Shown: one piece after another, positions 1 to 25,467 of the stretch
How positions within the stretch are numbered: position 1 is the stretch's first letter
Layout of the letters: each line of letters starts with the position of its first letter
Source: Candidatus Spongiisociaceae bacterium
GTDB lineage: Bacteria; Actinomycetota; Acidimicrobiia; Spongiisociales; Spongiisociaceae
DNA length: 64,000 nt
NCBI GenBank assembly: GCA_965202665.1
Contig: OZ241841.1
Span: forward strand, 2,016,001 to 2,080,000
Reading direction: 5' to 3'
Program-made: the position numbers and the translations under genes
Notes under the pieces: generated by a model
Database searches by the model: none
Told to the model about the DNA's origin: nothing
Seen by the model: only the letters and a program-made list of their open reading frames with translations

Positions 1-1446
1 GACATCAACTTGGAGGTGGAAAAGGGGGAAATTCACGCCATCTGCGGGGAGAACGGGGCGGGTAAGTCCACGCTGATGAAAATCCTCTACGGAATGCAAC
101 AACCGGACGAAGGCCGTATTGAGATTATGGGGGAGGAGCGGCGATTTTCCTCCCCCAAGGACGCCATCGGTTTGGGGATTGGGATGGTGCATCAGCATTT
201 TATGCTGGCCGACAACCTGACCGTGTTGGAAAACGTAATTCTGGGAGCGGAGCCGGTGATCGCCGAGGTGATTAATTTCGCCGACGCCCGGGCCCGGTTG
301 AGCGAGTTGGGGGAGGCGTACGGGCTGAAAGTGGGATTGGACGACCGGGTGGACACGTTGGAGGTGGGGGAGCGGCAACGAATAGAAATCATCAAAATCT
401 TGTACCGGGGGGCCCAGATTCTGATTCTGGATGAGCCGACCGCGGTGCTGGTCCCCCAAGAAGTGGAGGAGTTGTTCCGCAATATGCGGGAGTTGAAAGC
501 CCAGGGACACACCTTGATTTTCATCGACCACAAACTGGACGAGGTGTTGGAAATCGCCGACACCATCAGCGTGTTGCGGGGCGGCCGGTCGGTGGCGACC
601 GTCAAACCGGAGGAGGTGACCGCCGGGGACTTGGCGGAGCTGATGGTCGGTTCGGAACTGCCCAAGCCCGCCACCACTTCCACCACCGTAACCGACCGGG
701 CGGTAGTGGAAGCCTCCGATGTTTCGGCGGTGGACGAGGAGGGCGTGGAACGTTTGAAAGGGGTCAGTTTCACGGTGCACGCCGGGGAGATTGTGGGGGT
801 GGCCGGCGTGGAGGGCAACGGCCAGGCGGAACTGATAGAGGTCCTCCTGGGGATAACTCCGGCCGCCGCCGGCCGGATTTTCCTGCACGGCGAGGACGTA
901 ACCGAGCTGTCGGTGCGCAAGCGCCGGGAGGCGGGACTGGGGTACATAGCCGAGGACCGCCAACGGAGGGGGCTTCTGCTCACTTCCCCGGTGTGGGAGA
1001 ACGCCATTTTGGGTCATCAGACCCGTCCCGAGTTCGTGCGCTCCCGGGTGTGGATCAACGAACGGTCCGCCCGTCGCCATTCCGCCGGAATGGTGGACCG
1101 GTTCGATGTGCGCACCCCGGGGGTGGACACCCCCATTCACGCCCTGTCCGGCGGCAACCAGCAGAAACTGGTGGTGGGGCGGGAAATGTCGGTGGACTGC
1201 AATCCGTTGATAGCCGCCCATCCCACCCGGGGGATAGACGTGGGTTCGCAGGCCGCCATCTGGGAGGATTTGCGGGCCGCCCGGCGGGGCGGGCAAGCGG
1301 TTTTGCTGGTCTCCGCCGACCTGGAGGAGTTGATCGGATTGAGCGACTCCCTGCTGGTGATGCTTAGGGGGGAGATAGCGGCCCGCCTGGATCCTTCCCG
1401 GATCACCCCCCGCCAGTTGGGGGCCTATATGACGGGGGCGGCGTGA
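1..1446 (+). CDS. ABC transporter ATP-binding protein, two-NBD nucleoside/sugar (NupA/YufO-like) type; 5' end lies outside the window
   Basis: Walker A GENGAGKST, LDEPT Walker B, second NBD with LSGGNQQK; frame open from base 1. Confidence 0.93.
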   Translation, partial: DINLEVEKGEIHAICGENGAGKSTLMKILYGMQQPDEGRIEIMGEERRFSSPKDAIGLGIGMVHQHFMLADNLTVLENVILGAEPVIAEVINFADARARLSELGEAYGLKVGLDDRVDTLEVGERQRIEIIKILYRGAQILILDEPTAVLVPQEVEELFRNMRELKAQGHTLIFIDHKLDEVLEIADTISVLRGGRSVATVKPEEVTAGDLAELMVGSELPKPATTSTTVTDRAVVEASDVSAVDEEGVERLKGVSFTVHAGEIVGVAGVEGNGQAELIEVLLGITPAAAGRIFLHGEDVTELSVRKRREAGLGYIAEDRQRRGLLLTSPVWENAILGHQTRPEFVRSRVWINERSARRHSAGMVDRFDVRTPGVDTPIHALSGGNQQKLVVGREMSVDCNPLIAAHPTRGIDVGSQAAIWEDLRAARRGGQAVLLVSADLEELIGLSDSLLVMLRGEIAARLDPSRITPRQLGAYMTGAA

Positions 1447-2585
1447 GAGCGGCGGTCCGCATCGTGGGTCCGCCGGTGGCGGCCCTGCTGTTGGCGGCGG
1501 CGGTGGCCGGGTTGATACTCTTGATCTCCGGGGCCAATCCGCTGGTGGCCTTCGGCAACGTGTGGGAGTACGGTTCCCGGTTGGAAACCCTGCTGGAATC
1601 TTTGAACCGGGCCACTCCGCTCTACATTTCCGGGATCGCCTTCGCCATCGCCATGCGGATGAACCTGTTTCAAATCGGGGTGGAAGGGCAGTACATTCTG
1701 GCCGCCTTCATGGCCGCTTACGTGGGGGCGGCGGTGGGGCCCCTGTTCCCCCCCCTGCACATCGCCATTATCCTGCTCACCGCCATGGCGGTGGGGGCGG
1801 CCTGGGCGGGTTTGGCCGGGTTGATGAAAATCACCCGCAACGTGCACGAGGTCATCTCCACCATAATGCTCAACGCCATCGCCGTGGCGGGGGTGGTCTC
1901 CTTTCTGCTGGGCCGGTGGGCCATCCCGTTGGAGTCGCTGGACACCCGCTTGGCCGACATTCCCGAAACCGGATGGTTTCCCAGCCTCAACCCGGTGGTG
2001 GAATGGTTCACCCGCGACATCAGACGGGTGGATCTGACCTCTTTCATCTTGGTGGCGGCGGCGGTGGGGGTGGTTTACCACTTGCTGGTCAACCGCACCC
2101 GGCTGGGTTACGACCTGCGGGCCACCGGGGTCAATCCGTGGGCGGCGGAGGCCAGCGGGGTGCCTCCCAAGCGGACCATCATGCTGGCCATGTTGCTGAG
2201 CGGGGCGGTGGCGGGCTTGGTGGGGATGGCCGACCTGTTGGGCGACCAGTATTTCTACAGCCTGCGCTTCCCGCAAGGTTTGGGTTTCACCGGCATCGCG
2301 GTGGCGTTGGTGGGGCGCAACCACGCGGTGGGGGCGGCCTTTGCCGCCGTCGCCTTCGGCTGGCTGGAGCGGGCCTCCGGGGTGTTGGAAGTTCGGGGCG
2401 ACGCTCCGCGGGAGGTGGTCACCATTATGGTGGGGGTGGTGATCCTGTTCGCGGTGATCGCCTACGCCTTGGCCCAGCGCCGGCGCCGAATTGAAGCGGC
2501 GGCCGCGGCCGCCGACCAGATGAAGGAACGGGCCGTCGTCCGGGTCGGGGGATCGGGGGACGACGGGCGGGAGGCTGACATATGA
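1443..2585 (+). CDS. ABC transporter permease (nucleoside/sugar family)
   Basis: Multi-TM; LFQIGVEGQY, HEVISTIMLN and GFTGIAVALVGRN motifs; GTGA overlap with the ATPase gene. Confidence 0.9.
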   Translation: MRAAVRIVGPPVAALLLAAAVAGLILLISGANPLVAFGNVWEYGSRLETLLESLNRATPLYISGIAFAIAMRMNLFQIGVEGQYILAAFMAAYVGAAVGPLFPPLHIAIILLTAMAVGAAWAGLAGLMKITRNVHEVISTIMLNAIAVAGVVSFLLGRWAIPLESLDTRLADIPETGWFPSLNPVVEWFTRDIRRVDLTSFILVAAAVGVVYHLLVNRTRLGYDLRATGVNPWAAEASGVPPKRTIMLAMLLSGAVAGLVGMADLLGDQYFYSLRFPQGLGFTGIAVALVGRNHAVGAAFAAVAFGWLERASGVLEVRGDAPREVVTIMVGVVILFAVIAYALAQRRRRIEAAAAAADQMKERAVVRVGGSGDDGREADI

Positions 2586-3859
2586 GCATGACCGAAGAGC
2601 GGCCGCTCAGCCTTTCCCAGCCGGGGATGCTGCCCCGTTACCGGTGGATACTGTACGGGTTGAGCGGGATTATGTTGCTGGCGGTGACCCAGCAGTTCGC
2701 CGCCCTGCCCACTGAAGATCTGACCTCCAGCGGCACCTGGTCCATCGCTTTGGCTTGGTCGGTGCCCATTTTGCTGGCCGGCCTGGGCGGCATGTTCTCC
2801 GAACGGGCCGGGATCGTCAACATCGGACTGGAGGGGATGTTGATTCTCGGCACCTGGTTCGGGGCTTACGGAACGGTGGTGGCCGGGCCGTGGGCGGGGA
2901 TGCTGATGGCGGGTATCGCCGGGGCGGTGGGCGGACTGATCATGGCCGCGGCCGCGGTCGGATTCAACGTGGATCATATTATCGCCGGGGTGGCCATCAA
3001 CCTGATGGCCCCCGGTTTGACCCGCTTCCTGTCCGATGTGCATTTCTCCGACCGGGGCGGCTCCATTACCCAGTCGCCGGTCATCTCCGGGGTGAGCGAT
3101 TTCACCTTGCCCATCCTGGCGGGCGGAACCATCCTCGGATGGCGGAGCCCGGACCTGTTGGGGGCGATCGAGCGGTCGGGCTGGTTTTTCATCTCCGACT
3201 TTGCTGGCGTCCTGCGCGGGTTTGTTTTTCAGATGTCCTGGTTCACCCTGCTGGTCTACCTGTTCGTGCCCTTCTCCATTTTCCTGTTATGGCGCACCAA
3301 GTTCGGCCTGCGGTTGCGCAGTTGCGGCGAGCATCCGCAGGCGGCCGATTCCCTGGGGGTCAACGTTTACAAGTACAAGTACTACGGGGTGGTGATCAGC
3401 GGGGCCCTGGCCGGGGCGGGGGGCGGCTTTCTGGCCATTCAGCTGTCCGGCGTCTACAAGGAGGGGCAGACGCAGGGCAAAGGGTTCATCGGTTTGGCCA
3501 CCATGATTTTCGGCAACTGGAACCCGTTGGGCACTGCCCGGGGGGCCATCCTGTTCGGGTTCACGGAGACCCTGCGCTTGCGGGATCCCAACGCGGCCCA
3601 CGGGCTGTTGTTGCTGGTGGTGATCTCGGTGGGTCTTTTAATCCTGTGGCGCATCCTCCGCAAACGGGGCGTGGGAACCTGGCAGTTGGCGATTGTGGCC
3701 ATCGCCGTCGGATACTGGTATTTCAACTCCACCGGGGTGCCCAACCAGTTGCCGGCCATCACCCCCCACATCGTGGTGCTGGTGGTTCTCCTGTTCGCCA
3801 CCTCCCGATTGCGTCCGCCCGCCTCCGCCGGCCTGCCCTACCGCAAGGGCGAAGATTAG
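2582..3859 (+). CDS. ABC transporter permease (second subunit)
   Basis: SERAGIVNIGLEG, GLRLRSCGEHPQAADSLG and GKGFIGLATMIFGNW motifs; ATGA overlap. Confidence 0.9.
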   Translation: MSMTEERPLSLSQPGMLPRYRWILYGLSGIMLLAVTQQFAALPTEDLTSSGTWSIALAWSVPILLAGLGGMFSERAGIVNIGLEGMLILGTWFGAYGTVVAGPWAGMLMAGIAGAVGGLIMAAAAVGFNVDHIIAGVAINLMAPGLTRFLSDVHFSDRGGSITQSPVISGVSDFTLPILAGGTILGWRSPDLLGAIERSGWFFISDFAGVLRGFVFQMSWFTLLVYLFVPFSIFLLWRTKFGLRLRSCGEHPQAADSLGVNVYKYKYYGVVISGALAGAGGGFLAIQLSGVYKEGQTQGKGFIGLATMIFGNWNPLGTARGAILFGFTETLRLRDPNAAHGLLLLVVISVGLLILWRILRKRGVGTWQLAIVAIAVGYWYFNSTGVPNQLPAITPHIVVLVVLLFATSRLRPPASAGLPYRKGED

Positions 3860-3879
3860 CTGTTCCGCGAGGTCCCGGC

Positions 3880-4719
3880 ATGGTTGAGATCATCCCCCAC
3901 ATCGACGATATCGGGGTCACGTTGGGGTCGGTGCGGGCCATGGAGGAGCTGGCCGGCCGGGGGTTTGTCACTTCCGGTTCGGTTATGGCCCCCTGTCCCT
4001 GGTTGGCGGAGGCGGCCGCCCTGTCCGCCCGCCGCCCGGAGCTGGATCTGGGTCTGCATCTCACGCTCACCTCCGAGTCGGCGCGTATGCGCTGGCGGCC
4101 CCTTTCCACCCGCTCCCCCGCCTCCGGGTTGATCGACGGGGACGGGTTCATGTGGCCCACGGTTCCGCAGTTGCGGGCCAACGCCCATCCGGGGGCGGTG
4201 GAGGAGGAACTGGAAGCCCAGATTGAGGCGGCCCGCCGGGCGGGGATGGAGCCCACCCATCTGGATCATCATATGGGAGCGGCTTTCGCTCCCGAGTTCG
4301 CCGCTCTGACCGTGCGCATCGCCCGTCGCCGCCGGTTGCCGGTTTTGATACCGGCCGACCCGGCCGCCTACGCGGGGGTTCTGGAGTGGGGGGAGGCCGA
4401 TATGCGGGTTCTGGAGGAGGTGCGGGACCGGGAGCAAGCCGCCGGCGCGGTGTTGGCGGACCGGTTTTTGATGGGTCTGGCCTTCCAAGACGAGGAGCCC
4501 GACGCGGTTTATCGGCGTTTTTTGGCTGAAGCGGAGGGTTTGACTTTTCTGTCGTTGCACTGCGACTCCCCCGGCGAGGTTACGGCCGTCCACCCCAACG
4601 ACGCCGGCTGGCGCATCGCCGAATACGAGTGGGTCAAAGCGGGGGCCGCCCCTCTGCCCGACGGAGTCCGCCTGACGGACTTCCGGTCGCTGTCCGCCCG
4701 CTGGCGTTGGCCTGCCTAA
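3880..4719 (+). CDS. ChbG/YdjC-family carbohydrate deacetylase
   Basis: HIDDIG, TSGSVM, GLHLTL and PTHLDHHMG motifs; real start ATG 3880 inside the listed 2755..4719 ORF. Confidence 0.85.
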   Translation: MVEIIPHIDDIGVTLGSVRAMEELAGRGFVTSGSVMAPCPWLAEAAALSARRPELDLGLHLTLTSESARMRWRPLSTRSPASGLIDGDGFMWPTVPQLRANAHPGAVEEELEAQIEAARRAGMEPTHLDHHMGAAFAPEFAALTVRIARRRRLPVLIPADPAAYAGVLEWGEADMRVLEEVRDREQAAGAVLADRFLMGLAFQDEEPDAVYRRFLAEAEGLTFLSLHCDSPGEVTAVHPNDAGWRIAEYEWVKAGAAPLPDGVRLTDFRSLSARWRWPA

Positions 4720-4757
4720 AGGTTCCGAGAACAATGCAAACCCGCCCGAAATTTCGG

Positions 4758-4976
4758 AGTTTGACAGAGTTTATGCGTTTCGCATAAGGTTGATAAGGTG
4801 GGGTTAGGTTTGTATAACTCTCCATCAGCGAGGAAGTTTGACAGAGTTTATGCGTTTCGCATAAGGTTGATAAGGTGGGGTTAGGTTTGTATAACTCTCC
4901 ATCAGCGAGGAAGTTTGACAGAGTTTATGCGTTTCGCATAAGGTTGATAAAGTATAGTAAGGTCTGAATAACTATG
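4758..4976 (+). repeat. 77-bp tandem repeat: two identical units plus a third unit that diverges in its 3' half and runs into the ATPase ATG
   Basis: TTGACA recurs at 4761, 4838 and 4915 (period 77); each unit contains the palindrome TTATGCG-TTT-CGCATAA. Confidence 0.95.
4761..4970 (+). promoter_or_regulatory. Repeated sigma70/SigA-like promoters with an embedded operator-like palindrome
   Basis: Each unit has TTGACA-N18-TAAGGT with the palindrome spanning the spacer and overlapping the -10; units 1-2 also have TTGATA-N17-TATAAC. Confidence 0.6.
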
Positions 4977-6158
4977 GACGTAAACGAAAATCCGTATCGC
5001 CCCGGAGCCGGTACCAGGCCTCCGGTGCTGAGAGGACGCGATGATCTATTCGCCCGCTTCGAGGGCATAGTAGAACATGCACTCCGCGGGCGGCCCGGTA
5101 AAAGCTTGGTGTTGCTGGGCTTGCGCGGCGTCGGCAAGACCGTGTTGTTGAACCAGTTCGTCAGTCTCGCCGAGCAGAAGGGTTACAGCACGGGACATAT
5201 GGAGGCCGATGAATCCCAGGACCTGCGTTTGTTGATGGCCATGCGCCTGCGTCGGATTCTGCTGGCCTTGCAAAGACGACGCCCGTCGCAAAAAATTATG
5301 CGGGCGTTGCGGATACTGAAAGCCTTCAGCTACCAGTTGCCGGATGGTTCCCTTGTCACTTTGGATGTGGAGGCGTTGCGGGGTTACGCCGATTCCGGCG
5401 TTATCGGCGATGACCTAACGGATTTGCTGGTCGCCGTAGGGGAGGCGGCCGCAGGCCAGGAGCGAGGCGTGCTGTTGGCGGTAGATGAAATTCAGTATTT
5501 GGCGAAAGAGGAGTTGGGAGGGTTGATTGCCGCTATTCACCGTACCACCCAACTGGATCTTCCGGTGGTGCTGGTGGGAGCCGGCCTGCCCCAGTTGCCC
5601 AAATTGGCGGGTGAGGCTAAATCTTACTCGGAACGGTTGTTTGAATTTCCCTTTGTCAACTCTTTGTCGGAGGAAGACGCCGCGGCCGCCATCGCCCTGC
5701 CGGCGGCGCCGTTGGGAGTGGAGTTTGCGGACGCCGCCTTGGAAGCCATCTTCGCCAACTCAAAAGGCTATCCGTATTTTCTGCAGGGTTGGGGTTATTA
5801 CGTATGGAATGAGGCCGGCGTCTCTCCGGTTGGTCCGGAGGCGGTGCGGGCCGCGGCCGAGTTGGTCGTCAAGCATCTGGATCGCGATTTCTATGCGATG
5901 CGCTTTGATCGCTTGACTCTCAAAGAAAAAACATATTTACGGACTATGGCCGAATTCAAATCCAGCAAGATACGCTCCGGGGATATCGCCGCCCGCCTCG
6001 GGGTTCCGGTGGAGAACGCCGCTCCCCGGCGCAGCGCCTTGATCCGGAAGGGCATGATTTACAGTCCCGGGTACGGCGAGACGGCTTTCACCGTCCCCAT
6101 GTTTGACGATTTTTTGCGGCGGCAGATGCCGGATTTTCAGGCGGCGACGGGCGATTGA
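4974..6158 (+). CDS. AAA/STAND-like P-loop ATPase with probable C-terminal winged helix
   Basis: NPYRPGAG..GR N-terminus, Walker A GLRGVGKT, Walker B LLAVDEIQ, GYPYFLQ, and a wHTH-like SGDIAARLG...LIRKGMIY; codon usage more AT-rich than neighbours. Confidence 0.85.
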   Translation: MDVNENPYRPGAGTRPPVLRGRDDLFARFEGIVEHALRGRPGKSLVLLGLRGVGKTVLLNQFVSLAEQKGYSTGHMEADESQDLRLLMAMRLRRILLALQRRRPSQKIMRALRILKAFSYQLPDGSLVTLDVEALRGYADSGVIGDDLTDLLVAVGEAAAGQERGVLLAVDEIQYLAKEELGGLIAAIHRTTQLDLPVVLVGAGLPQLPKLAGEAKSYSERLFEFPFVNSLSEEDAAAAIALPAAPLGVEFADAALEAIFANSKGYPYFLQGWGYYVWNEAGVSPVGPEAVRAAAELVVKHLDRDFYAMRFDRLTLKEKTYLRTMAEFKSSKIRSGDIAARLGVPVENAAPRRSALIRKGMIYSPGYGETAFTVPMFDDFLRRQMPDFQAATGD

Positions 6159-6171
6159 CGGCTGGTTGGAT

Positions 6172-6200
6172 TTGGCGGCCGGCCGGGTATGGCGTATAAT
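6172..6200 (+). promoter_or_regulatory. Promoter of the rplJ-rplL operon
   Basis: TTGGCG-N17-TATAAT. Confidence 0.65.
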
Positions 6201-6233
6201 GCTTCCCTTGCGTCCGCTTGCGGGCGGGCGCGC

Positions 6234-6294
6234 GACCGTAGACAGCCGGCGCCGTAAAGCGTAAGCGGCCCGTTCGGGTCCGCCTGCCGAGGTC
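6234..6294 (+). ncRNA. L10 leader (ribosomal protein autoregulatory RNA)
   Basis: GACCGTAGACAG...CCTGCCGAGGTC pattern typical of L10 leaders, directly upstream of rplJ. Confidence 0.75.
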
Positions 6295-6348
6295 CTTCCC
6301 GGTCTCCGGGCGGCTGTCGCGGGTGGAGCAGAGCCAAGGAGAGACCAA

Positions 6349-7047
6349 ATGCCCCGACCGGACAAGGTCCAGGCAGTCGAAGATATCAAGCAACGGTTCC
6401 AGAATGCCTCAGCCGCTTTCCTGACTGAATATCGCGGGTTGCCGGTGGCCCGCCAGCAGGAACTGCGCGGGGCCCTGCACGACGCCGGGGCCGGATACAA
6501 GGTGCTGAAAATGTCCCTTACCCGCCGGGCGTTGGACGAGCTGGGGATGGAGGGGCTAGATGAATGGCTGACCGGCCCCACCGCCATCGCGTTCACCGGC
6601 GATGATCCCGTTCCGGCCGCCCGCGCCCTAGCCGACTTCGCCAAGGCGAACGACGCCTTTTTAATTAAGGGGGGATGGTTCAACGGGGAGGCCATCCCGT
6701 CGGAAGTGGTTTCCCGGCTGGCCAACATCGACTCCCGCGAGGCGCTGTTGGCCAAAACGGCGGGCGCTTTTAAAGGGCCCCTCAACAAGATGGCGGCGGT
6801 TATGGGTTCTTTCACCCGAGAGGCCGCCTCCCTGTTCTCCGCCCTGTTGGAACGCAAAGAGGAGATACCGTCGGAGGCCGCCCCCGTCGCCGGCGGCTCC
6901 GAAGAGCCGGCTCCGCCGGCCCAGGATGCCGCCCCGGCCCCCGATGTTGATTCCGAGTCCGTTCCTACCGCCGCGGCCGGAGAAGACGACGAAGCGGACG
7001 GGGCGGAGGGCGCCGACCCCGATCAGATCACCCAAGACAATCAATAA
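6349..7047 (+). CDS. rplJ: 50S ribosomal protein L10 with acidic C-terminal tail
   Basis: LTEYRGL, GPTAIAF and IKGG motifs; AAGGAG RBS. Confidence 0.96.
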
Positions 7048-11256: not shown

Positions 11257-14200
11257 GTGCGCGAGCTGTTCGATGAACTGAAAATTGGTTTGGCGTCCTC
11301 CGATCAGGTGCGGTCCTGGTCGTTCGGGGAGGTGAAGAAGCCGGAGACCATCAACTACCGCAGCTTGAAGCCGGAGAAGGACGGGCTGTTCGACGAGCGC
11401 ATTTTCGGTCCGCAGAAGGACTGGGAATGCTACTGCGGCAAATACAAGCGTTTTCGCTACCGGGGCATCGTGTGCGAAAAATGCGGCGTGGAGGTGACCC
11501 GCAAGGATGTGCGCCGGGATCGGATGGGCCACATCGACCTGGCCGCCCCGGTCACCCATATCTGGTTTTTCAAAGGAGTCCCCTCCCGGTTGGGGTATCT
11601 GCTGGACATGTCCCCCAAAAACCTGGAGATGATCATCTACTTTGCGGCCTACGTGATCACGGAAGTGGACGAAGGCAAACGGATGGTGGATCTGCCCGAC
11701 CTGGAGGAGCAGATGCGGGCCGAGTTGGAAATTGTGGGGGAGGAGTTGGAGGAGTGGCGGTTGGAGCGGCTGTCCCGGTTGGAGAAGCAGGTGGAGCAGA
11801 TGGAGGAGGCGGGGGCCAAGCTGGCGGAGGTGGCCACCGTGCGCCGCGAGGCGGAGCGGGAAATCAAGGATCGGGAGGAGAAAGCGGAGAAGGAACGCGA
11901 GTTGATCAAGGAGAGTTTTGCGGAATTTCGCGAGTTGCGTCCCAAAGATCTGGTGGAGCGGGAGGATTTGTGGAGGGAGATGCACGAACGCTACTCGGCC
12001 TACTTCGATGGGGGAATGGGGGCGGAGGCGGTGAAGAAATTGCTGTCCAAGGTGGATTTGGACGCCGAGATGGAGGAGTTGCGGGAAGGTTTGCAATCAT
12101 CGTCGGCGCAACGGAAACTGCGCTCCGGGCAACGTGTGAAGGTGGTGAAGCCCTTCTGGGAGGGCAAGCATTCGCCGGAGAGCATGATTATAGAGGCGGT
12201 TCCGGTCATCCCGCCTGAGTTGCGACCCATGGTGCAGTTGGACGGGGGGCGCTTCGCCACCTCCGACCTGAATGACCTGTACCGGCGGGTGATTAACCGC
12301 AACAATCGCCTGAAGCGGCTGTTGGGGTTGAACGCCCCCGAGATCATCATCAACAACGAGAAGCGCATGTTGCAGGAGGCGGTGGACGCCCTGTTCGACA
12401 ACGGGCGGCGGGGGCGGGCGGTGCCCGGTACCGGCAATCGTCCCTTGAAGTCTTTGACCGACATGTTGAAGGGCAAAGCGGGGCGGTTCCGGCAGAACCT
12501 GCTGGGGAAGCGAGTGGATTATTCCGGCCGGTCGGTGATCGTGGTGGGCCCGCAGTTGAAGTTGCATCAGTGCGGTTTGCCCAAGGTGATGGCGTTGGAG
12601 TTGTTCAAGCCGTTCGTGATGAAGCGGCTGGTGGACCGGGATTTGGCGGCCGGCATCAAGGCGGCCAAGCGGATGGTGGAGCGGCAACGTCCGCAGGTGT
12701 GGGACGTGTTGCGGGAGGTGATACAGGATCATCCGGTGTTGCTCAACCGGGCCCCCACTTTGCACCGGCTGGGGATTCAAGCTTTCGAACCGTTGCTGGT
12801 GGAAGGCAAAGCCATACAGATTCATCCCCTGGTGTGCGAGGCTTTCAACGCCGACTTCGACGGGGATCAGATGGCGGTGCATCTCCCCTTGTCTCCGGAG
12901 GCGCAGGCCGAGGCGCGGGTGCTGATGCTGTCCACCAACAACGTACGTTCCCCGGCCAGCGGCCATCCCATCGTGTCCCCCTCCCAGGACATGGTCATCG
13001 GCCTCTACTACCTGTCGGCGAATATCAAAAAAGAAGGCGCCTTGGGGACAGGCCGGTACTTTGCCGATCTGCCGGAGGCGTTGATGGCCTATGACTTGGG
13101 TGAGTTGGAAGTGCACGCCCCGATCAAAATTCGGATGGGCGATATGGCGGGCGACCCGCAGGTGCACGCCGAGCTGAAGGATCTGATCGGGTATCTGATC
13201 ACCGACCAACCGGTGGATGGCCAGGTTCCGATGGACACCACTTTGGGCAAGGCCTTACTCAACCAAGCCCTGCCCGCCGATTTCCCGTTGATCGACGCTC
13301 CTTTGTTGAAGAGCGGCATCAAAGACCTGCTCGCTGAGATCATCGACCGCTACGACAAGGCGGTGGTGCAACGCACTCTGGACGGGCTCAAGGATTTGGG
13401 TTTCGCCTTTTCCACCCAGGCGGGGCTCACCGTGGGTTTGAACGATGTGACCACCCCGCTCGACAAGCCGAAGATACTTAACGAGGCGGAGGACAGGGCG
13501 CAGAAGAAGGAACGAGAGTACCAGCAGGGGAGCATTACCGCCCAGGAACGGGATCAGGAGTTAGTGGAGATTTGGAGCGAAGCCACCGAAGAGTTAACCC
13601 AGAAGGTGCGCACTTCCCTGTCCGATCAGGACTTCAACCCCATTGATATGATGATGAGCTCCGGCGCCCGGGGCAACATCATGCAGGTGCGCCAGATAGC
13701 CGGTATTCGCGGCTTGGTGGCTAACAACCGCGGACGCATCATCCCCCGGCCCATCAGGTCTAATTTCCGAGAGGGGATGACTGTGCTGGAGTATTTCATG
13801 TCCACGCACGGGGCCCGCAAAGGTCTGACCGACACCGCTCTGAAAACCGCCGACGCTGGTTATCTGACCCGCCGCCTGGTGGATGTGTCCCAAGAGATTA
13901 TCGTCTCCGAAGAGGAATCGGAGGATCGGGGCATCGACATCCGCGTACGGGATGCAAAAGGCGATACCCTCCCCGACTTGCGCAACCGCATCTACGGGCG
14001 GGTGTTGGCCGAAGATGTGAAAGTGGATTACAAGTTGCGTATCACCCGCCCCGGTGATTCCAACTTCGAAGCTGGCCAAACCGTGGAGTTCACGAAGTTT
14101 GCGTCCGTCAAACGGGAGTTGTTGGAGGCTGGCAAAAAACCGGCCGAAGGTCGGCCGACGGGAGGTAAAACGGCCCTTACCAAGGATGGCGTGGCTCTGG

Positions 14201-16113
14201 AGGCGGGGGCGGTGATTGACCGCAAGGTGATGGTGGAACTGCAGGCTATGCCGGAAGTCGACTCGGTGCGGGTGCGTTCCCCGCTCACCGACGAGATCCG
14301 GCACGGCATCAGCCGCGCTTCCTACGGGCTGAGCATGTCCACCAACCAACTGGCGGAACCGGGCGAGGCGGTGGGGGTGATGGCCGCCCAGTCCATCGGC
14401 GAGCCGGGCACGCAGCTGACCATGCGCACCTTTCATACCGGGGGGGTGGCCGATGAAACGGATATCACCCACGGCCTGCCCCGGGTGGTGGAGTTGTTCG
14501 AAGCCCGCTCCCCCAAGGGAAAGGCCATCTTGGCCGAGGCCAGCGGAAAAGTGCGCATTGACGATGGTGAAGAGGGGGTGCGCGCTTTGGTAATCGAATC
14601 CCCCCGGAGCGGGGAAGTCAAATACCGCTTGTCCCCCAACGCCCGGTTGCGGCCCGGGGTGCGAGAGGGGGGTGAAGTCGCCGCCGGAGATCAACTTACC
14701 GAAGGGCCGTTGGATCCCAAAGAGGTGTGCCTCATCAGAGGAGTGCGGGCCTGTCAGCAGTATCTGGTGGATCAGGTGCAGGATGTGTACCGCAACCAGG
14801 GGGTGGAGATTCACGACAAGCACATCGAGCTGATCGTGCGGCAGATGTTGCGCAAAGTGCGCATCATCGAGCCCAACGACACCGATTTTCTGCCCATGCA
14901 GATGGTGGATCAGGGAGAGTTCCGGGACACCAACCGGGAGTTGGCGGCCGCGGGCAAGCAACCGGCCGAGGGCCGTCCGGAGCTGATGGGGATCACCAAG
15001 GCCTCGCTGGCTACCGAGTCCTGGTTGTCGGCCGCATCCTTCCAGGAAACCAGCCGCGTGCTCACCGAGGCGGCCATCAACGGACGCTCCGACTACCTGC
15101 GGGGACTGAAGGAGAACGTGATCATCGGCAAGCTGATTCCGGCCGGCACCGGTTCCGATGAATACCAGAAACTCCAACCCGAGCTGTCCCAGGCGCAGAT
15201 AACACCCCCCTTGACCGGAGCCGACTGGTTGGCCGTGCGGGAGATGGAAGTATTCACCGAAGAGGTCGCCGGTGAGGCCGAGGATAAGGCCGCCCAAGCC
15301 GAGGAGGCCCGGGCCAGGGCGGAGGAGAAAAAGGCGGAGGTGAACGCCGCCACTGACGATGCCGAGAAATATACTTTGAGGAGGGAAAGAGACGAAGAAT
15401 ATGAACGGGCCGCCCGCTATGACCGGGAGGCGGCCGAGGAGGAGGAGCGGGCCGCGGCCCGCAAGTTGGCCCATGCCCAAGCGAAGGCGGAGGAGGCCGA
15501 GGAAGCCGAAGCGGCCGCCCAGGAGAAAGAGTTGGAACAGGCTCGCAAAGAGGCGGAAAAGGCCCGGCAAGCGGTGGAGAAGGCCCGGGAGAAGGAAGAC
15601 AAGGCCGCCAAAACGCGCCGGGAGAGGGCCGCCAAAGAGGCGCAAAAATGGAAGGATCGGGCACAGCGGGCATTGCGAGAGGCCGAAGGGAAGCAGAAGC
15701 AGGTGGCTGATAAAACGGAGCAGGCTAAAGCCGCGCTGGATATAAGCGCAAAGGTGGATTTGGCGCGGCAGGTCGTGTCTGAATCCGAGAAGGTGATCCA
15801 AGGCGTACGGGAAGCGAGGAAAGCGGCAACGGTAGCCCAGGAGGCTGAAGTTAAGGCTGAGCTGGAAGATACAGAAGCGCCGCAGGTAATAGAGGACGCC
15901 GAACAGGTGATCCTAGATGTGGAGCAAAAGGTTCAGGAGTTGCGGGCCTCGCTGGATGCTCCCCAACAGGATGCGGGAGCTATTGACAGATCCCTCGACG
16001 AGAACCGCGAGTCCTTGACGAGGATGGCCGTTACCTTGCAGAAGTTCACCGACTGGTTGAAAAAAATCGGCGAGCTCGTCGCCGATGCCCTAAAGAAACT
16101 GCTGGGAGGGTAA
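11257..16113 (+). CDS. rpoC: RNA polymerase beta' subunit with a long C-terminal extension (1618 aa)
   Basis: N-terminal Zn finger CYCGK..CEKC, catalytic [23 protein letters not shown], and [14 protein letters not shown] ending at aa 1299; AAAGGAG RBS with GTG start. Confidence 0.99.
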
Positions 16114-16115
16114 GA

Positions 16116-16472
16116 TTGTCGTACGGGGAATCTCTTAACCCGCTTCAGCTTTTTGGGGCGGCGCCCTTCGCTGGCCACGAGGGCAATCCGGCGGACTTCT
16201 CCCGTACGCTTAACGCTGTTCGGATTGGCGTTTCATGGAAGGGTCCTTTCAGTGATGCCATACAACTCATCGAGGCCGCTACTAAGTTGCCCGTGACGGC
16301 CGGCGGGGAGTTGGAGGGGCATATGGCGATCGCGGCGGGGAAAGCCATCGAGGCGGTAATGGGGCAAGTCTTTGAACTGCAGGCGGAGGCGCGCCGGTGC
16401 TTTTCTGCGGAGGCCATCGCCCATGCCGAGCGATGGCTGGCGGAAAACAGCCCCGCTGGAAACGGACGATGA
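16116..16472 (+). CDS. Hypothetical protein (118 aa) immediately after rpoC
   Basis: TTG start 2 nt after the rpoC stop with GGGAGG RBS inside the rpoC tail; globular composition; fills the gap before the rpsL promoter. Confidence 0.6.
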   Translation: MSYGESLNPLQLFGAAPFAGHEGNPADFSRTLNAVRIGVSWKGPFSDAIQLIEAATKLPVTAGGELEGHMAIAAGKAIEAVMGQVFELQAEARRCFSAEAIAHAERWLAENSPAGNGR

Positions 16473-16504
16473 GGCGCGTGGCGGTTGCGAAAGGGGTCCC
16501 TGTT

Positions 16505-16534
16505 TTGACATAGCGGCGGGCCGGTCTGTATAAT
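16505..16534 (+). promoter_or_regulatory. str operon promoter
   Basis: Consensus TTGACA-N18-TATAAT. Confidence 0.85.
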
Positions 16535-16559
16535 GCGGGCCGTGCTTGCGCACATATTT

Positions 16560-16631
16560 ACTCTCGTGCCCTGAGGGCCGGTGGTCCCGCCGCTGGCAAC
16601 CGCAAGGTGGCGGGAACCCACACAAGAGAGT
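16560..16631 (+). ncRNA. Structured rpsL 5' leader (candidate cis-regulatory RNA)
   Basis: Closing stem ACTCTCGTG/CAC-AA-GAGAGT, hairpin GCCC-TGA-GGGC, stem TCCCGCC/GGCGGGA and ACC-GCAA-GGT GNRA hairpin. Confidence 0.5.
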
Positions 16632-16723
16632 TGGCGCGTCGCATCGCCGGCGGGCCGATTACAGAAAACGAACGGGCAGGGTTGCCCGCGTCTTGCGCGC
16701 CTGCCCGCCCGCGAGGAGCAATT

Positions 16724-17095
16724 TTGCCAACCATACAACAGTTGGTGCGCCGGGGCCGCAAGCCCAAGGCGCGCAAGGAGAAGACGCCGGGTCTGGCCGG
16801 TTCCCCCCAGCGGCGGGGGGTGTGCACCCGCGTCTACATCATCACCCCCAAAAAGCCCAACTCCGCCCAGCGCAAAGCGTGCCGGGTGCGGCTCACCTCG
16901 GGAGTGGAGGTGACCGCCTACATCCCCGGCGAGGGGCACAACCTGCAGGAGCATTCCATCGTGCTCATCCGGGGCGGCCGGGTGCGCGACTTGCCCGGGG
17001 TGCGTTACAAGGTCATCCGGGGGGCTTTGGATGCGGCCGGCGTGGACGGCCGCCGTCAGGCCCGTTCCCGCTACGGAACGAAACGGGAGCGATAA
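16724..17095 (+). CDS. rpsL: 30S ribosomal protein S12
   Basis: [16 protein letters not shown] and [12 protein letters not shown]; TTG start after GAGGAG. Confidence 0.98.
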
Positions 17096-17096
17096 G

Positions 17097-17564
17097 ATGC
17101 GCCGCGCCCCCGCTCAACGCCGCCAGATCGAACCGGATCCGTTGTTCCGCAACATGCTGGTATCCCAGATAATCAACCAGGTTTTGCTGCGGGGCAAAAA
17201 GAACAAAGCCCGGCGCATCGTCTACGGGGCCTTGGAGTTGGTGGAAAGCCGCAGCGGCCAGGATTCCATACAGGTGTTGAAGCGGGCCATCGACAACCTC
17301 CGTCCGCAGGTGGAGGTGCGCACCCGCCGGGTGGGGGGCACCTCCTACCAGGTGCCGATGGACGTCCGCCCCCGCCGCGCCTCCACTTTGGCCATCCGCT
17401 GGCTGATCGGGTTCGCCCGCCGCCGCCGGGAGAAGTCCATGGCCCATCGGCTGGCCGCCGAAATTATGGATGCCGCCAACAACACCGGGGCGGCCGTCAA
17501 ACGCAAAGAAGACGTCCACAAGATGGCCGAATCCAACAAGGCCTTCGCCCACTACCGCTGGTAA
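17097..17564 (+). CDS. rpsG: 30S ribosomal protein S7
   Basis: [11 protein letters not shown] and [15 protein letters not shown]. Confidence 0.98.
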
Positions 17565-19688: not shown

Positions 19689-20879
19689 ATGGGGAAGCCG
19701 AGGTTTGAGCGTTCGAAGCCGCATGTGAATGTGGGGACGATGGGTCATATTGATCATGGGAAGACGACGTTGACGGCGGCGGTGACGCGGGTGTTGGCGG
19801 AGCGGGTGGGGGGTGTGAATGTTTTTTCGGCGTTTGATGAGATTGATAAGGCTCCGGAGGAGCGGGAGCGGGGGATTACGATTTCGATTGCGCATGTGGA
19901 GTATGAGACGGAGAGTAGGCATTATGCGCATGTGGATATGCCGGGGCATGCGGATTATATTAAGAATATGATTACGGGGGCGGCGCAGGTGGATGGGGCG
20001 GTGTTGGTGGTGTCGGCGGCGGATGGTCCGATGCCGCAGACGAGGGAGCATGTGTTGTTGGCGAGGCAGGTGGGGGTGCCGTGTGTGGTGGTGGCGTTGA
20101 ATAAGGTGGATTTGGTGGATGATGGGGAGTTGTTGGATTTGGTGGAGTTGGAGGTGCGGGAGTTGTTGGGGGAGTATGGGTTTGATGGGGATGGGGCTCC
20201 GGTGGTGCGGGTGTCGGCGTTGGGGGCGTTGGAGGGTGATGTGGGGGCGGGGGATGGGGTGATGGAGTTGTTGGGGGCGGTGGATGAGTTTGTGCCGGTG
20301 CCGGAGCGGCCGGTGGATTTGCCGTTTTTGATGCCGATTGAGGATGTGTTTTCGATTACGGGGCGGGGGACGGTGGTGACGGGGAAGGTGGAGGCGGGGG
20401 TGTTGCGGGTGGGGGGGGATGTGGAGGTGGTGGGGATTAGGGAGACGAGGAGGTCGGTGGCGACGGGGGTGGAGATGTTTCGTAAGTTGTTGGATGAGGG
20501 GAGGGCGGGGGATAATGTGGGGGTGTTGTTGCGGGGGGTGGGGAAGGATGAGGTGGAGCGGGGGCAGGTGTTGGCGGCTCCGGGGTCGATTACGCCGCAT
20601 ACGGTGTTTGAGGCGCAGGTGTATGTGTTGACGAAGGAGGAGGGGGGGAGGCATAATCCGTTTTTCTCGGGTTATCAGCCGCAGTTTTATTTTAGGACGA
20701 CGGATGTGACGGGGAAGGTGGAGTTGCCTGGGGGGGTGGAGATGGTGATGCCGGGTGATAACACGACGATGACGGTCACGTTGGGGTCTCCTATTGCGAT
20801 GGACGAGGGTTTGCGGTTCGCCATCCGGGAGGGGGGCCGCACGGTGGGGGCGGGCACCGTCACCCAAATCCACAAGTAA
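19689..20879 (+). CDS. tuf: Elongation factor Tu (extreme G/T codon skew)
   Basis: [27 protein letters not shown] and [13 protein letters not shown]. Confidence 0.99.
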
Positions 20880-21216: not shown

Positions 21217-21848
21217 GTTTGACCACCATTGTCGGCGAAAAGGTGGGGATGACGCAGATCTTCGATGAGGAGGCGCGGGCCCTCCCGGTAACGGTTATCA
21301 AAGCCGGCCCCTGCCGTATCGTCCAGATACGCACCCCCGAAACCGACGGCTATTCCGCCGTCCAGCTCGGTTACGGCCAAGCCCGCGGCGCCAATCGCCC
21401 CGTTTCCGGTCATTACGCCAAAGCCGGGGTGGAGCCCGCCCGGCGGTTGGTGGAAGTGCGGGTGGACGATGTTTCCGAGTTTGCGGTGGGGCAGGAGATC
21501 AAGGTGGAGGACATTTTCCAGCCGGGCGGCAAGGCGGATGTAACCGGCGTTTCCAAAGGCAAAGGTTTCCAGGGGGTGATGAAACGACACAACTTCCGGG
21601 GTCAGAAGGCCAGCCACGGCGCCCACAAAATCCATCGCGCTCCGGGGGCCATCGGGGCTTGCGCCACCCCCGCCCGGGTGTTCAAAGGAACCAAGTTGCC
21701 GGGCCGCATGGGGGCGGAGCGGGTCACCGTCCTCAACTTGGCGGTGGTGGGCGTGGACGCCGAACAGGGCCTGCTTTTACTGCAGGGGGCGGTGCCCGGC
21801 CCCAAAGGGGCGATGGTGTTCGTGCGGGAGGCGGTCAAGAATGCCTGA
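21213..21848 (+). CDS. rplC: 50S ribosomal protein L3
   Basis: [23 protein letters not shown]. Confidence 0.98.
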
Positions 21849-22674
21849 TCTGTCCGCCCCCCTCTACGATTCCGCCGGAACCGAAAAGGGAGAGGTGGAG
21901 TTGGACGCCGACCTGTTCGGGGTGGAACCCAACCGGGCGGTGATGCACCAGGCGACGGTGGCCTATTTGGCGGGACGGCGGTCGGGAACCGCCAAAGTCA
22001 AATCCCGCTCCGAAGTGCGGGGGGGAGGCCGCAAGCCTTGGCGGCAGAAAGGTTTGGGACGGTCCCGGCACGGGTCCATCCGCTCGCCCCTGTGGGTGGG
22101 GGGCGGCTCCGCTCACGGACCCCGGCCCCGCACCTACGCCCAGCGCACCCCCAAGAAGATGCGCGGCTTGGCCCTGCGCAGCGCCCTGTCCTGCCGGGCG
22201 GCGGAAGGGGCGGTGAAAGTGGTGGAAGATTTTGAATGGGACGTCCCCCGCACCCGGCGGGCGGCCGAGTTGCTAGCCGCCATCGGGGCGGACGGCAAGG
22301 CCTTGGTGGTGTTGGCCGGCGGGCAGGGGACGGCCGAAGCCTCTTTCCGCAACCTGCCGCAGGTGATTTTGGGCCGGGCGGGCCACCTTAACGCCTATGA
22401 CGTGCTCTGGTCGGACACGGTGGTGTTTTCCGGTTCGGCCCTGTCCTATCCGGATCCGTTCGTCGCTCCCGGACAGGAAGCAGTCCCCGCCGCCGATTCC
22501 GAAGAAGATGTTCCCCTCCCCGAATCTCCCCCAACCGGGGAAACCGATGAAGGCGAGGCCCCGGTTGCCGAAACTCCGCCCGCGGACTCCGATTCCGAAT
22601 CAGATTCCGAATCTGCGCCGGAGGGCGGGGAAGAGGACTCCGGGGAAGAAGAAGAGGAGGGGGCGAATGTCTGA
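21841..22674 (+). CDS. rplD: 50S ribosomal protein L4 with acidic C-terminal tail
   Basis: [22 protein letters not shown]. Confidence 0.97.
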
Positions 22675-24074: not shown

Positions 24075-24436
24075 GGGCCGTCGCCCACGCCCGCTATATT
24101 CGCCAGTCGCCCTACAAGGTGCGTTTGGTGCTGGATCAGGTGCGGGGGCGCCCGGCGTCCGAGGCGCGGACGGCCCTGCGCTTCTCCAACCGCCGCGCCG
24201 CCGGCCCTATCTTGAAATGCCTGGATTCGGCCATCGCCAACCTCAACTCCAAGTTTGATCTGGGGCAGGACGTGGATTCTCTGGCCGGCGAAGTGAGGGT
24301 GGAGGAGGCTTACGCCGGCGAGGGGCCGACCCTGAAAAGGTTCCGTCCCCGGGCCCGGGGGCGGGCCGCCCGCATCCGCAAGCGCACCAGCCATATCACG
24401 ATTGTGGTTTCCGATGAACGGGAGGAGAGGGAATAG
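24071..24436 (+). CDS. rplV: 50S ribosomal protein L22
   Basis: [28 protein letters not shown]. Confidence 0.97.
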
Positions 24437-25467
24437 TGGGGCAGAAAACCCACCCGTACGGGTTCCGTTTGGGCATCGTCACTGACTGGAAGTCGCGTTG
24501 GTTCTCCAACAAGGAATACCAGGACCTGGCCAATCAGGATTATCAGATCCGCGACTACCTGTGGCGGGAGTTGGCGCGGGGGGCGGTGTCCCGCATCGAT
24601 GTGGAACGCACCCGCGACAAGCTGGTGGTGGAGGTGCACACCGCCCGTCCCGGGGTGGTGATCGGACGCAAAGGGGCGGAGGCGGACCGCATCCGCAACG
24701 GTTTGGAGAAGATGGCGGGCCAACCGGTGAAGTTGAACGTGGTGGAGGTGAAAGAGCCCGACTCCGACGCCCTGTTGCTGGCCCGGGGAGTGGCCGACCA
24801 GTTGGAGAACCGGGTGGCTTTCCGCCGGGCTATGAAACGGGCGGTGCAGACGGCGCTGACCGCCGGGGCGGAAGGGGTGCGCGTGGAATGCTCGGGCCGC
24901 CTGGGCGGGGCCGATATGGGACGCCGGGAATGGTACCGGGAGGGACGGGTGCCTTTGCATACCCTGCGGGCCGACATTGACTACGGCCGGGCCACGGCCC
25001 GCACCACGGTGGGGGCCATCGGCGTCAAAGTGTGGGTCTACAAGGGGGATCTGGTTTCTTCTTTGAAGACCACCCGCGAGAAAATCGCCGCTGAGGCGGC
25101 CCTGGCCGCGGGCGGTCCCGCCGGACGGGTGATTTCGGCCAAGAGCCGGGCCGAGCAACGCACCGGCGAACGCAAGACCCCCCGCGTCATCGAAGCGGGG
25201 GGCGGCAAGCGCCTGATCGAAGCGGGCGGCGGCCGCAAGGTGACCGCGGCCGAGGCCCGTTCCGAATACCGGGAGGCGGTGGAGGATCAAGAGGAGAAAC
25301 TGGACATCCTGTCCGACTCCGGGGCCGATGAGGCGGGCGACTCTGATGCCGGGGAGCATACCCCGGAGGAGAGGGTCGGGGCGCCGGGTGATGGGACGGC
25401 GCCCGCCGACGGGACGGCCGAGGATTCGGATCCCCCCTCCTCCGAGGCGGGCGGGGAGGAAGAATAA
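24436..25467 (+). CDS. rpsC: 30S ribosomal protein S3 with long C-terminal extension
   Basis: [35 protein letters not shown]; GTG start. Confidence 0.97.

Follow-up and report, generated by a model that had tools for sequence, protein, structure and literature searches.

The β' subunit (RpoC) of RNA polymerase encoded in the window, i.e., the whole analyzed stretch of 64,000 nucleotides, ends in a long C-terminal tail, which is a genus-specific, selected arm on the core enzyme and for which no relative was found in our searches. As the best reading, which we hold tentatively and at slightly less than an even chance, the tail tethers RNA polymerase reversibly to the membrane. Whether and in what way transcription is physically coupled to the bacterial membrane (transertion, nucleoid expansion) has long been debated, mostly on the basis of nascent membrane proteins. 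If the tether reading is true, this link could be tested directly, and in transplantable form, with a polymerase that carries its own lipid-binding arm. If the tail docks a protein instead, a highly conserved enzyme would still have gained a new folded appendage.

The tailed β' subunit and its distribution

The gene lies in the order rplJ-rplL-rpoB-rpoC-ORF-rpsL-rpsG-fusA-tuf (names from translations). Its product carries the features of RpoC, namely Rpb1 domains 1-5, the catalytic NADFDGD motif and the place in rplJL-rpoBC, and scores 1636 bits against the TIGR02386 cut-off of 963.5. The 319 residues that the preliminary description had counted past the conserved GKLIPAGTG motif proved exact, the motif ending at position 15153 (Table 1). 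Within the linker at the start of the tail, positions 3-29 give a weak profile match in relatives.

Table 1. Features in and around rpoC, in window coordinates.
Feature	Position	Strand	Basis or remark
rpoC, β' subunit, 1618 residues with tail	11257..16113	+	Pfam Rpb1_1-5; TIGR02386 above cut-off
Second zinc site region, no cysteines	13897..14328	+	shared across the family, separate from the gain of the tail
Genus-specific insertion of ~45 residues (residues ~925-969)	14029..14163	+	approximate boundaries
Final conserved motif of the core, GKLIPAGTG (residues 1291-1299)	15127..15153	+	solved β' chains align up to here
Ancestral linker (tail 1-35), family-wide GADWLA-type motif	15154..15258	+	low model confidence
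Charged Ala/Glu/Lys/Arg rod (tail 36-169)	15259..15660	+	predicted single long helix
Distal domain (tail 170-319)	15661..16110	+	predicted four-helix bundle, without sequence family
Putative terminal class A amphipathic helix (tail 297-317)	16042..16104	+	moment and charge pattern
Stop codon TAA of rpoC	16111..16113	+	TGA in run X3
Orphan ORF of 118 residues, 2 nt past the rpoC stop	16116..16472	+	no family members found outside this genus
Perfect TTGACA-18-TATAAT promoter-like site upstream of rpsL	16505..16534	+	sequence

Other studies yielded contigs that run across the junction between core and tail with the frame intact. A single X4 contig spans positions 14500-17200 unbroken, the X12 and X3 contigs begin at 15125 and 15075, respectively, and run through the tail, and the X16 contig covers 15075-16786 with 82 substitutions and 0 gaps. 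The X18 and X20 contigs reach from 15000 to past the stop with 149 and 163 substitutions, respectively, again with 0 gaps. The sequencing runs that best match the locus include sponge and marine metagenomes (at least half of its words in 15 runs; 8 studies overall). The second genome of the genus (G001; the present genome is G000) encodes a homologous 353-residue tail with a 24-residue insertion in the rod, and database proteins include two clusters of complete tailed β' subunits, with 20 and 8 members. Even though the support at the junction consists of assembled contigs as opposed to raw reads, an assembly error, or a tail made as a separate protein, is extremely improbable: single contigs cross the junction, the independent genome G001 and the second protein cluster show the same fusion, the single Met close to the junction is not a conserved residue, and a stand-alone form was not found in our searches. 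A fusion artefact is thus largely refuted.

Outside the genus, β' tails measure 50-85 residues in all 27 parsed loci (the survey comprised 30 loci, of which L025 was unparsed). Among loci picked for their long frames, nine at the class level have acidic tails of 74-176 residues, and six of 14 at the phylum level have tails of ~153-230 residues. The initial statement that only tens of residues are usual in actinobacteria therefore holds within the order, but some Actinomycetota reach 150-230 residues. The long frames in G335 (1671) and G028 (2374) were rejected as further cases, because they result from an upstream open frame and end in tails of 102 and 70 residues. An independent β' tail of 172-176 residues, rich in Glu, Ala, Val, and Ile, occurs in L034 and L035 (family f14). 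The β' frames of genus g7 (L002, L004-L007, L014, L023), 1458-1485 residues long and ~100 residues above most relatives, have ordinary tails, and their length reflects either an insertion or an upstream open frame.

Two further species of the genus carry the tail, with 83% and 43-48% identity, and locus L049 is among those with a homologous tail. In a tree of 35 core fragments, the genus is nested inside its family (100/93, 100/99) on a long stem of 0.32, so that the tail was gained once, on the genus stem. It thus appears restricted to one genus of sponge-associated bacteria. We place the lineage in the order UBA5794 of the Acidimicrobiia. The available part of PMC12008989, on sponge-associated UBA5794, has no mention of "RNA polymerase" or "rpoC".

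Predicted architecture of the tail

We modeled the tail with AlphaFold2 from three sequences (pLDDT 82.5, pTM 0.50). The model shows a disordered linker (tail residues 1-21) followed by helices at 23-193, 197-234, 242-267, and 274-318. Tail residues 36-170 contain 29% Ala, 50% E/K/R, and no Pro, in agreement with the E/A/K/R-rich, almost Pro-free stretch noticed at first, and the rod is the top 100-residue window for E/A/K/R/Q/D among 1,055 long ORFs (0.91; runner-up 0.75). The coiled coil proposed in the preliminary description did not survive heptad analysis of this proximal part. Large hydrophobic residues make up 7-9% of the rod, and their a/d occupancy in the best 28-residue window is at most 0.25 in G000 and at most 0.38 in G001, so that, lacking a hydrophobic heptad, the rod is not a canonical coiled coil. 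An SMC-like coiled-coil protein was likewise rejected (TIGR02168, 14.4 bits vs. a cut-off of 567). The rod is instead predicted to be a single charged helix extending ~22 nm before the bundle. Its composition is that of a single α-helix (SAH), long and Pro-free with E/K/R contents of 50% and 42%, and the i+3/i+4 ion pairs (20 + 20) are equal to those in shuffles (p about 0.5).

The distal 151 residues, modeled alone, form four helices (pTM 0.77). Structural matches of this model include the vinculin tail (Z 14.7, rmsd 2.4, 128 aligned), TIP47 (perilipin; Z 11.9, rmsd 4.6, 126 aligned), p130Cas, talin, and FAT. The Z-scores fall smoothly from 14.7 to 10.5 at rank 50, with designed bundles intermixed, and Foldseek found no match at E ≤ 0.001 against the PDB and viral structures. 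The modeled likeness probably reflects a common architecture, with no evidence for homology or for mimicry of sponge proteins. Several of these matches are protein-binding bundles, as would be expected if the rod held the bundle away from the enzyme to bind a partner or a second copy of itself; candidate partners are, for example, the 118-residue protein encoded downstream, the enlarged CarD, a ribosome or a division protein. We consider such docking unlikely. The fold matches are generic, with 6-18% identity, designed bundles scoring alike and no gap to unrelated entries.

The amphipathic helix reported at the C-terminal end turned out to be exceptional. Its hydrophobic moment of 0.70 ranks first among 1,055 C-termini in the genome, in an ORF set obtained with a crude filter (≥200 residues, non-overlapping) and for a helix chosen after being noticed. 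Over the 488,494 windows of the set, only three, in two other proteins, score at least 0.70, the best window of the tail being just below. The last 18 residues have moments of 0.70-0.77 in four homologues, whereas other windows of the distal domain reach just 0.10-0.47. The hydrophobic face begins as a narrow stripe at residues 1576-1594 and widens to ~180 degrees at 1597-1616. Lys/Arg residues lie 102-158 degrees and Asp/Glu residues 143-178 degrees from the hydrophobic center, the Lys angles being somewhat toward the polar side. Permutation of the charge pattern gave p = 0.018, 0.018, 0.035, and 0.066 for four related, hence non-independent, sequences. Opposed faces, a high moment, basic flanks, and acidic residues in the middle of the polar face match the apolipoprotein-type class A pattern as given in the accessible part of PMC8146922.

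A Trp residue shifts by seven positions between species yet stays at the edge of the hydrophobic face. The pLDDT drops over the last 30 residues (78, 74, 49). The terminal helix is continuous with helix 4 of the bundle, and since the structural matches run to residues 140-151 of 151, the last helix may be buried in the bundle. With a net charge of +1 to +2, its lipid-binding discriminant is 1.0-1.3, below the firm threshold of 1.34.

Origin, selection, and genomic surroundings

Searching with the tail alone retrieved no stand-alone homologue among database proteins of 175-559 residues (7,995 candidates scored), and a single-sequence search found nothing in 400 other genomes of the class. The tail profile matched three of 301 genomes of the order, namely G000, G001, and a borderline case (E 9.6e-4) with a stop inside, which we took as chance. 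Against 1.84 billion representatives, a profile of the distal 150 residues gave three matches; P0028, a 47-residue fragment, matches the terminal-helix region and is a further variant of the tip, and the other two, of 3000 residues and of 190 repetitive residues, are weak and partial. No paralogue of the tail was detected in G000, G001 or the fetched loci, none was confirmed in a metagenome scan of 455 stretches, an Atlas search with the distal domain gave no usable match, and Pfam, NCBIfam, and PHROGs returned nothing significant. Titles and abstract openings of the open-access literature contained nothing on the tail or on a membrane-binding β' extension.

Tandem repeats were rejected as the source of the tail, being short and degenerate. 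Another lineage-specific addition, the actinobacterial β' i1, was rejected as an internal source as well, because the similarity within the same protein is driven by composition (25% identity, composition filter off). Replacement of a lost factor was rejected as a role of the tail: omega, CarD, and Mfd are present in all five genomes; RbpA was not found in any of the five, with or without the tail. Lipid droplets were dismissed as a target, because PhaC was not found in the five genomes; a WS/DGAT search gave no match in any genome, with the controls among the non-matching.

In-frame capture of a foreign gene had been suggested as a possible origin. The codons of the proximal tail are indeed host-like, with a GC3 of 0.74 against 0.80 in the core (not significant), and the distal tail has more A/T-ending codons (GC3 0.66; amino-acid-corrected z = -4.2 vs. 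the core). As 26% of 1,055 ORFs in the genome have a GC3 of 0.66 or less, the distal value does not stand out as clearly foreign; in G001, the two halves are lowered to the same extent (0.77 and 0.78 vs. 0.86 in the core). Given the lower GC3 and the higher dS of the tail, foreign capture is a possible origin, but no donor was found in our searches.

The internal duplication of β' is real and occurred on the same genus-stem branch as the tail. The genus-specific insertion copies residues ~1200-1243 (window ~14854-14985) in diverged form, with an alignment score of 105 against 46 for the best of 1000 shuffles; the segment bearing it spans 156 residues vs. 110-114 in other genera, and its nucleotide trace is a 49-nt repeat (78%, spacing 822). 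The cysteines of the second zinc site are absent, as initially noted, but the loss is not tied to the tail. None is present in the 15 family loci listed or in L097 of another family, whereas L030, L100, L033, and L034 have four to five. The loss in every family genus read and in one other family therefore predates the tail.

The orphan ORF downstream of rpoC is a real gene. Its profile matches 16 database proteins, 13 of which align with invariant columns; the ORF was also matched in two of the 29 family genomes, which both belong to this genus; in an Atlas search all scores were under 0.8. It adjoins rpoC here and in variants X18 and X20, whereas in G001 the domain occurs three times at 2.947 Mb, downstream of a sugar ABC operon and ~2.1 Mb from rpoC, in the form of tandem two-domain and single-domain proteins of a ~110-residue family (L046:9579-10685). 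There, the rpsL promoter follows rpoC directly, ~10 nt past the stop. The ORF is thus not an obligate neighbor of rpoC. Its restriction to the genus, shared with the tail, and its start 2 nt past the rpoC stop would suit a docking partner of the bundle, but its lack of linkage in G001 speaks against this. The preliminary description had combined the tail, the duplication, the zinc-site loss, and the ORF into one system, for which we found no supporting evidence, since the zinc-site loss predates the tail and the ORF is unlinked in G001.

Elsewhere in the window, the stretch ahead of rplJ (1-6350) contains an ABC operon and an AAA ATPase. The C-termini of L10, L4, and S3 (6349-7047, 21841-22674, and 24436-25467) are drawn out into long, acidic tails of low complexity, in G001 as well, and tuf (19689-20879) shows an extreme G/T skew, with a GC skew of up to 0.71. 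Among the relatives' loci (L082-L105), gene order differs in genera g2, g4, and g7, where rpsL does not come after rpoC and tuf is located ahead of the rplJ block; in g7 (L002-L006, L014, L023), the sequence just past the rpoC stop contains short, degenerate tandem repeats of 7 bases. In all five family genomes examined, CarD has an Ala/Lys/Pro N-terminal extension resembling histone H1. In G000 (C1:1602992-1604917, L059), this extension has 289 residues, 84 of them Lys/Arg and a single one acidic, and two copies of the CarD domain lie in tandem (113/156 identical, 72%). The extension exceeds 1,100 residues in G001 (C1 around 409436, L060) vs. 130-260 in three relatives. The table in PMC2919716 gives 137-301 residues for actinobacterial CarD-like proteins.

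The tail is under purifying selection and conserved in three species. Between G000 and G001, dN/dS is 0.16 for the core (85% identity) and 0.32 for the tail (48% identity), the latter value being rough because the tail dS is near saturation (1.4 vs. 0.56 in the core). Among the strain variants listed, the X12 tail has at least 11 synonymous and at least eight non-synonymous changes (pN/pS 0.22, leaving out one compensating indel pair), and the X16 tail at least 26 and at least 14 (pN/pS 0.16). The tail is exactly 319 residues long in all 23 database proteins listed (15 of 20 and eight of eight cluster members, one of them from this genome itself). Its identity of 0.43-0.46 at a core identity of 0.85, vs. 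0.14-0.50 for ordinary acidic tails at core identities of 0.80-0.88, suggests that it is conserved only moderately better than such tails at a similar core distance.

The rpoC-rpsL gap contains variable accessory genes across the order and is a plausible source of the fusion. Read-through or fusion at this insertion-prone gap could have left a mere passenger, fixed by drift in a host-associated lineage, an origin that we judge quite unlikely; we give the same low credence to selection now merely keeping such a passenger soluble and folded. The differing gap contents agree with this account, as do the lower GC3 and higher dS of the tail and the long genus stem, which also gained the duplication. 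The genus accretes sequence on other proteins, with CarD duplicated or hugely extended and several ribosomal proteins bearing long acidic tails, which favors drift. Against it, none of the 23 proteins nor G001 has a truncated tail despite 85% core identity between species, the stop position and the last 45 residues (51% identity) are kept, and an extreme class A helix would be unlikely to persist without use.

A possible membrane tether and its known counterparts

The top hydrophobic moment, the class A pattern, the extreme C-terminal place, the drop in model confidence over the last residues, and purifying selection together argue for the membrane tether, in which the terminal helix would likely attach to the inner side of the cell membrane. 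A lipid surface would accommodate the shift of the Trp with the property kept more readily than a fixed interface, which also weighs against a docked protein partner. The case is weakened by the possible burial of the helix, its weakly basic character, and the accretion of sequence elsewhere in the genus. That amphipathic helices bind proteins too counts against a tether, as does the much faster evolution of the tail than of the core. For docking, the strongly basic CarD extension of G000 would face a net acidic tail, and other Actinomycetota place a known contact domain, the α-CTD, at the same position of β'.

In the tether reading, the last helix would rest loosely on the bundle and flip onto lipid. 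Attachment through a single helix per enzyme would be weak, and loci crowded with polymerases would therefore be held most firmly; such avidity on heavily transcribed loci is suggested by analogy with the MinD helix, a weak, valency-dependent membrane binder according to the accessible part of PMC6803595. Core enzymes might then be natively membrane-anchored through a >20-nm rod and a lipid-binding tip, with busy loci pulled by avidity, a possible but rather doubtful extension of the tether. Active transcription would be kept ~25-30 nm from the membrane. Such tethering could expand or anchor the nucleoid and favor coupled membrane-protein synthesis.

FtsA and RNase E are examples of proteins with C-terminal membrane-targeting helices. 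The targeting helix of E. coli MinD (residues 256-270) likewise sits at the extreme C-terminus, as described in the same part of PMC6803595. Like MinD-type and apolipoprotein helices, the terminal helix has a broad hydrophobic face, Lys residues at the interface, and acidic residues in the middle of the polar face. In contrast, it is longer than that of MinD, weakly basic, continuous with a bundle helix, and mounted on RNA polymerase; the likeness is one of pattern alone, and we claim no sequence homology. The up-down four-helix topology of the distal model is common to the FAT/vinculin/talin and perilipin bundles, which differ in sequence (6-12% identity to the distal domain). The rod resembles SAH (ER/K) spacers, for which the accessible part of PMC5347031 gives a compositional definition, in being E/K/R/A-rich, Pro-free, poor in large hydrophobic residues, and modeled as one helix. 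An SAH calls for no seam, whereas the rod has 28-29% Ala, which could form one.

Lineage-specific additions to RNA polymerase are established (E. coli β i4, i9, i11, and β' i6 in the nomenclature of Lane et al.; accessible part of PMC2939025). As in the tail, an extra helical domain is added to an intact core in one lineage. The tail differs from these known insertions in its C-terminal position, its length of 319-353 residues, its confinement to one genus, and its predicted combination of rod, bundle, and amphipathic tip. Closer in position are the Pfam-confirmed α-CTD-like domains (PF03118) at the β' C-terminus in L070 (388-1071) and L075 (1260-1808, minus strand). One or two α-CTD-like domains at the β' C-terminus were also observed in L071, L072, L074, and L078. 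These tails place a folded domain at the same place, past GKLIPAGTG, but the tail of the genus has no PF03118 match and differs from them in length, composition, and predicted fold. Together, the two kinds of tail show that Actinomycetota have repeatedly gained domains at the β' C-terminus.
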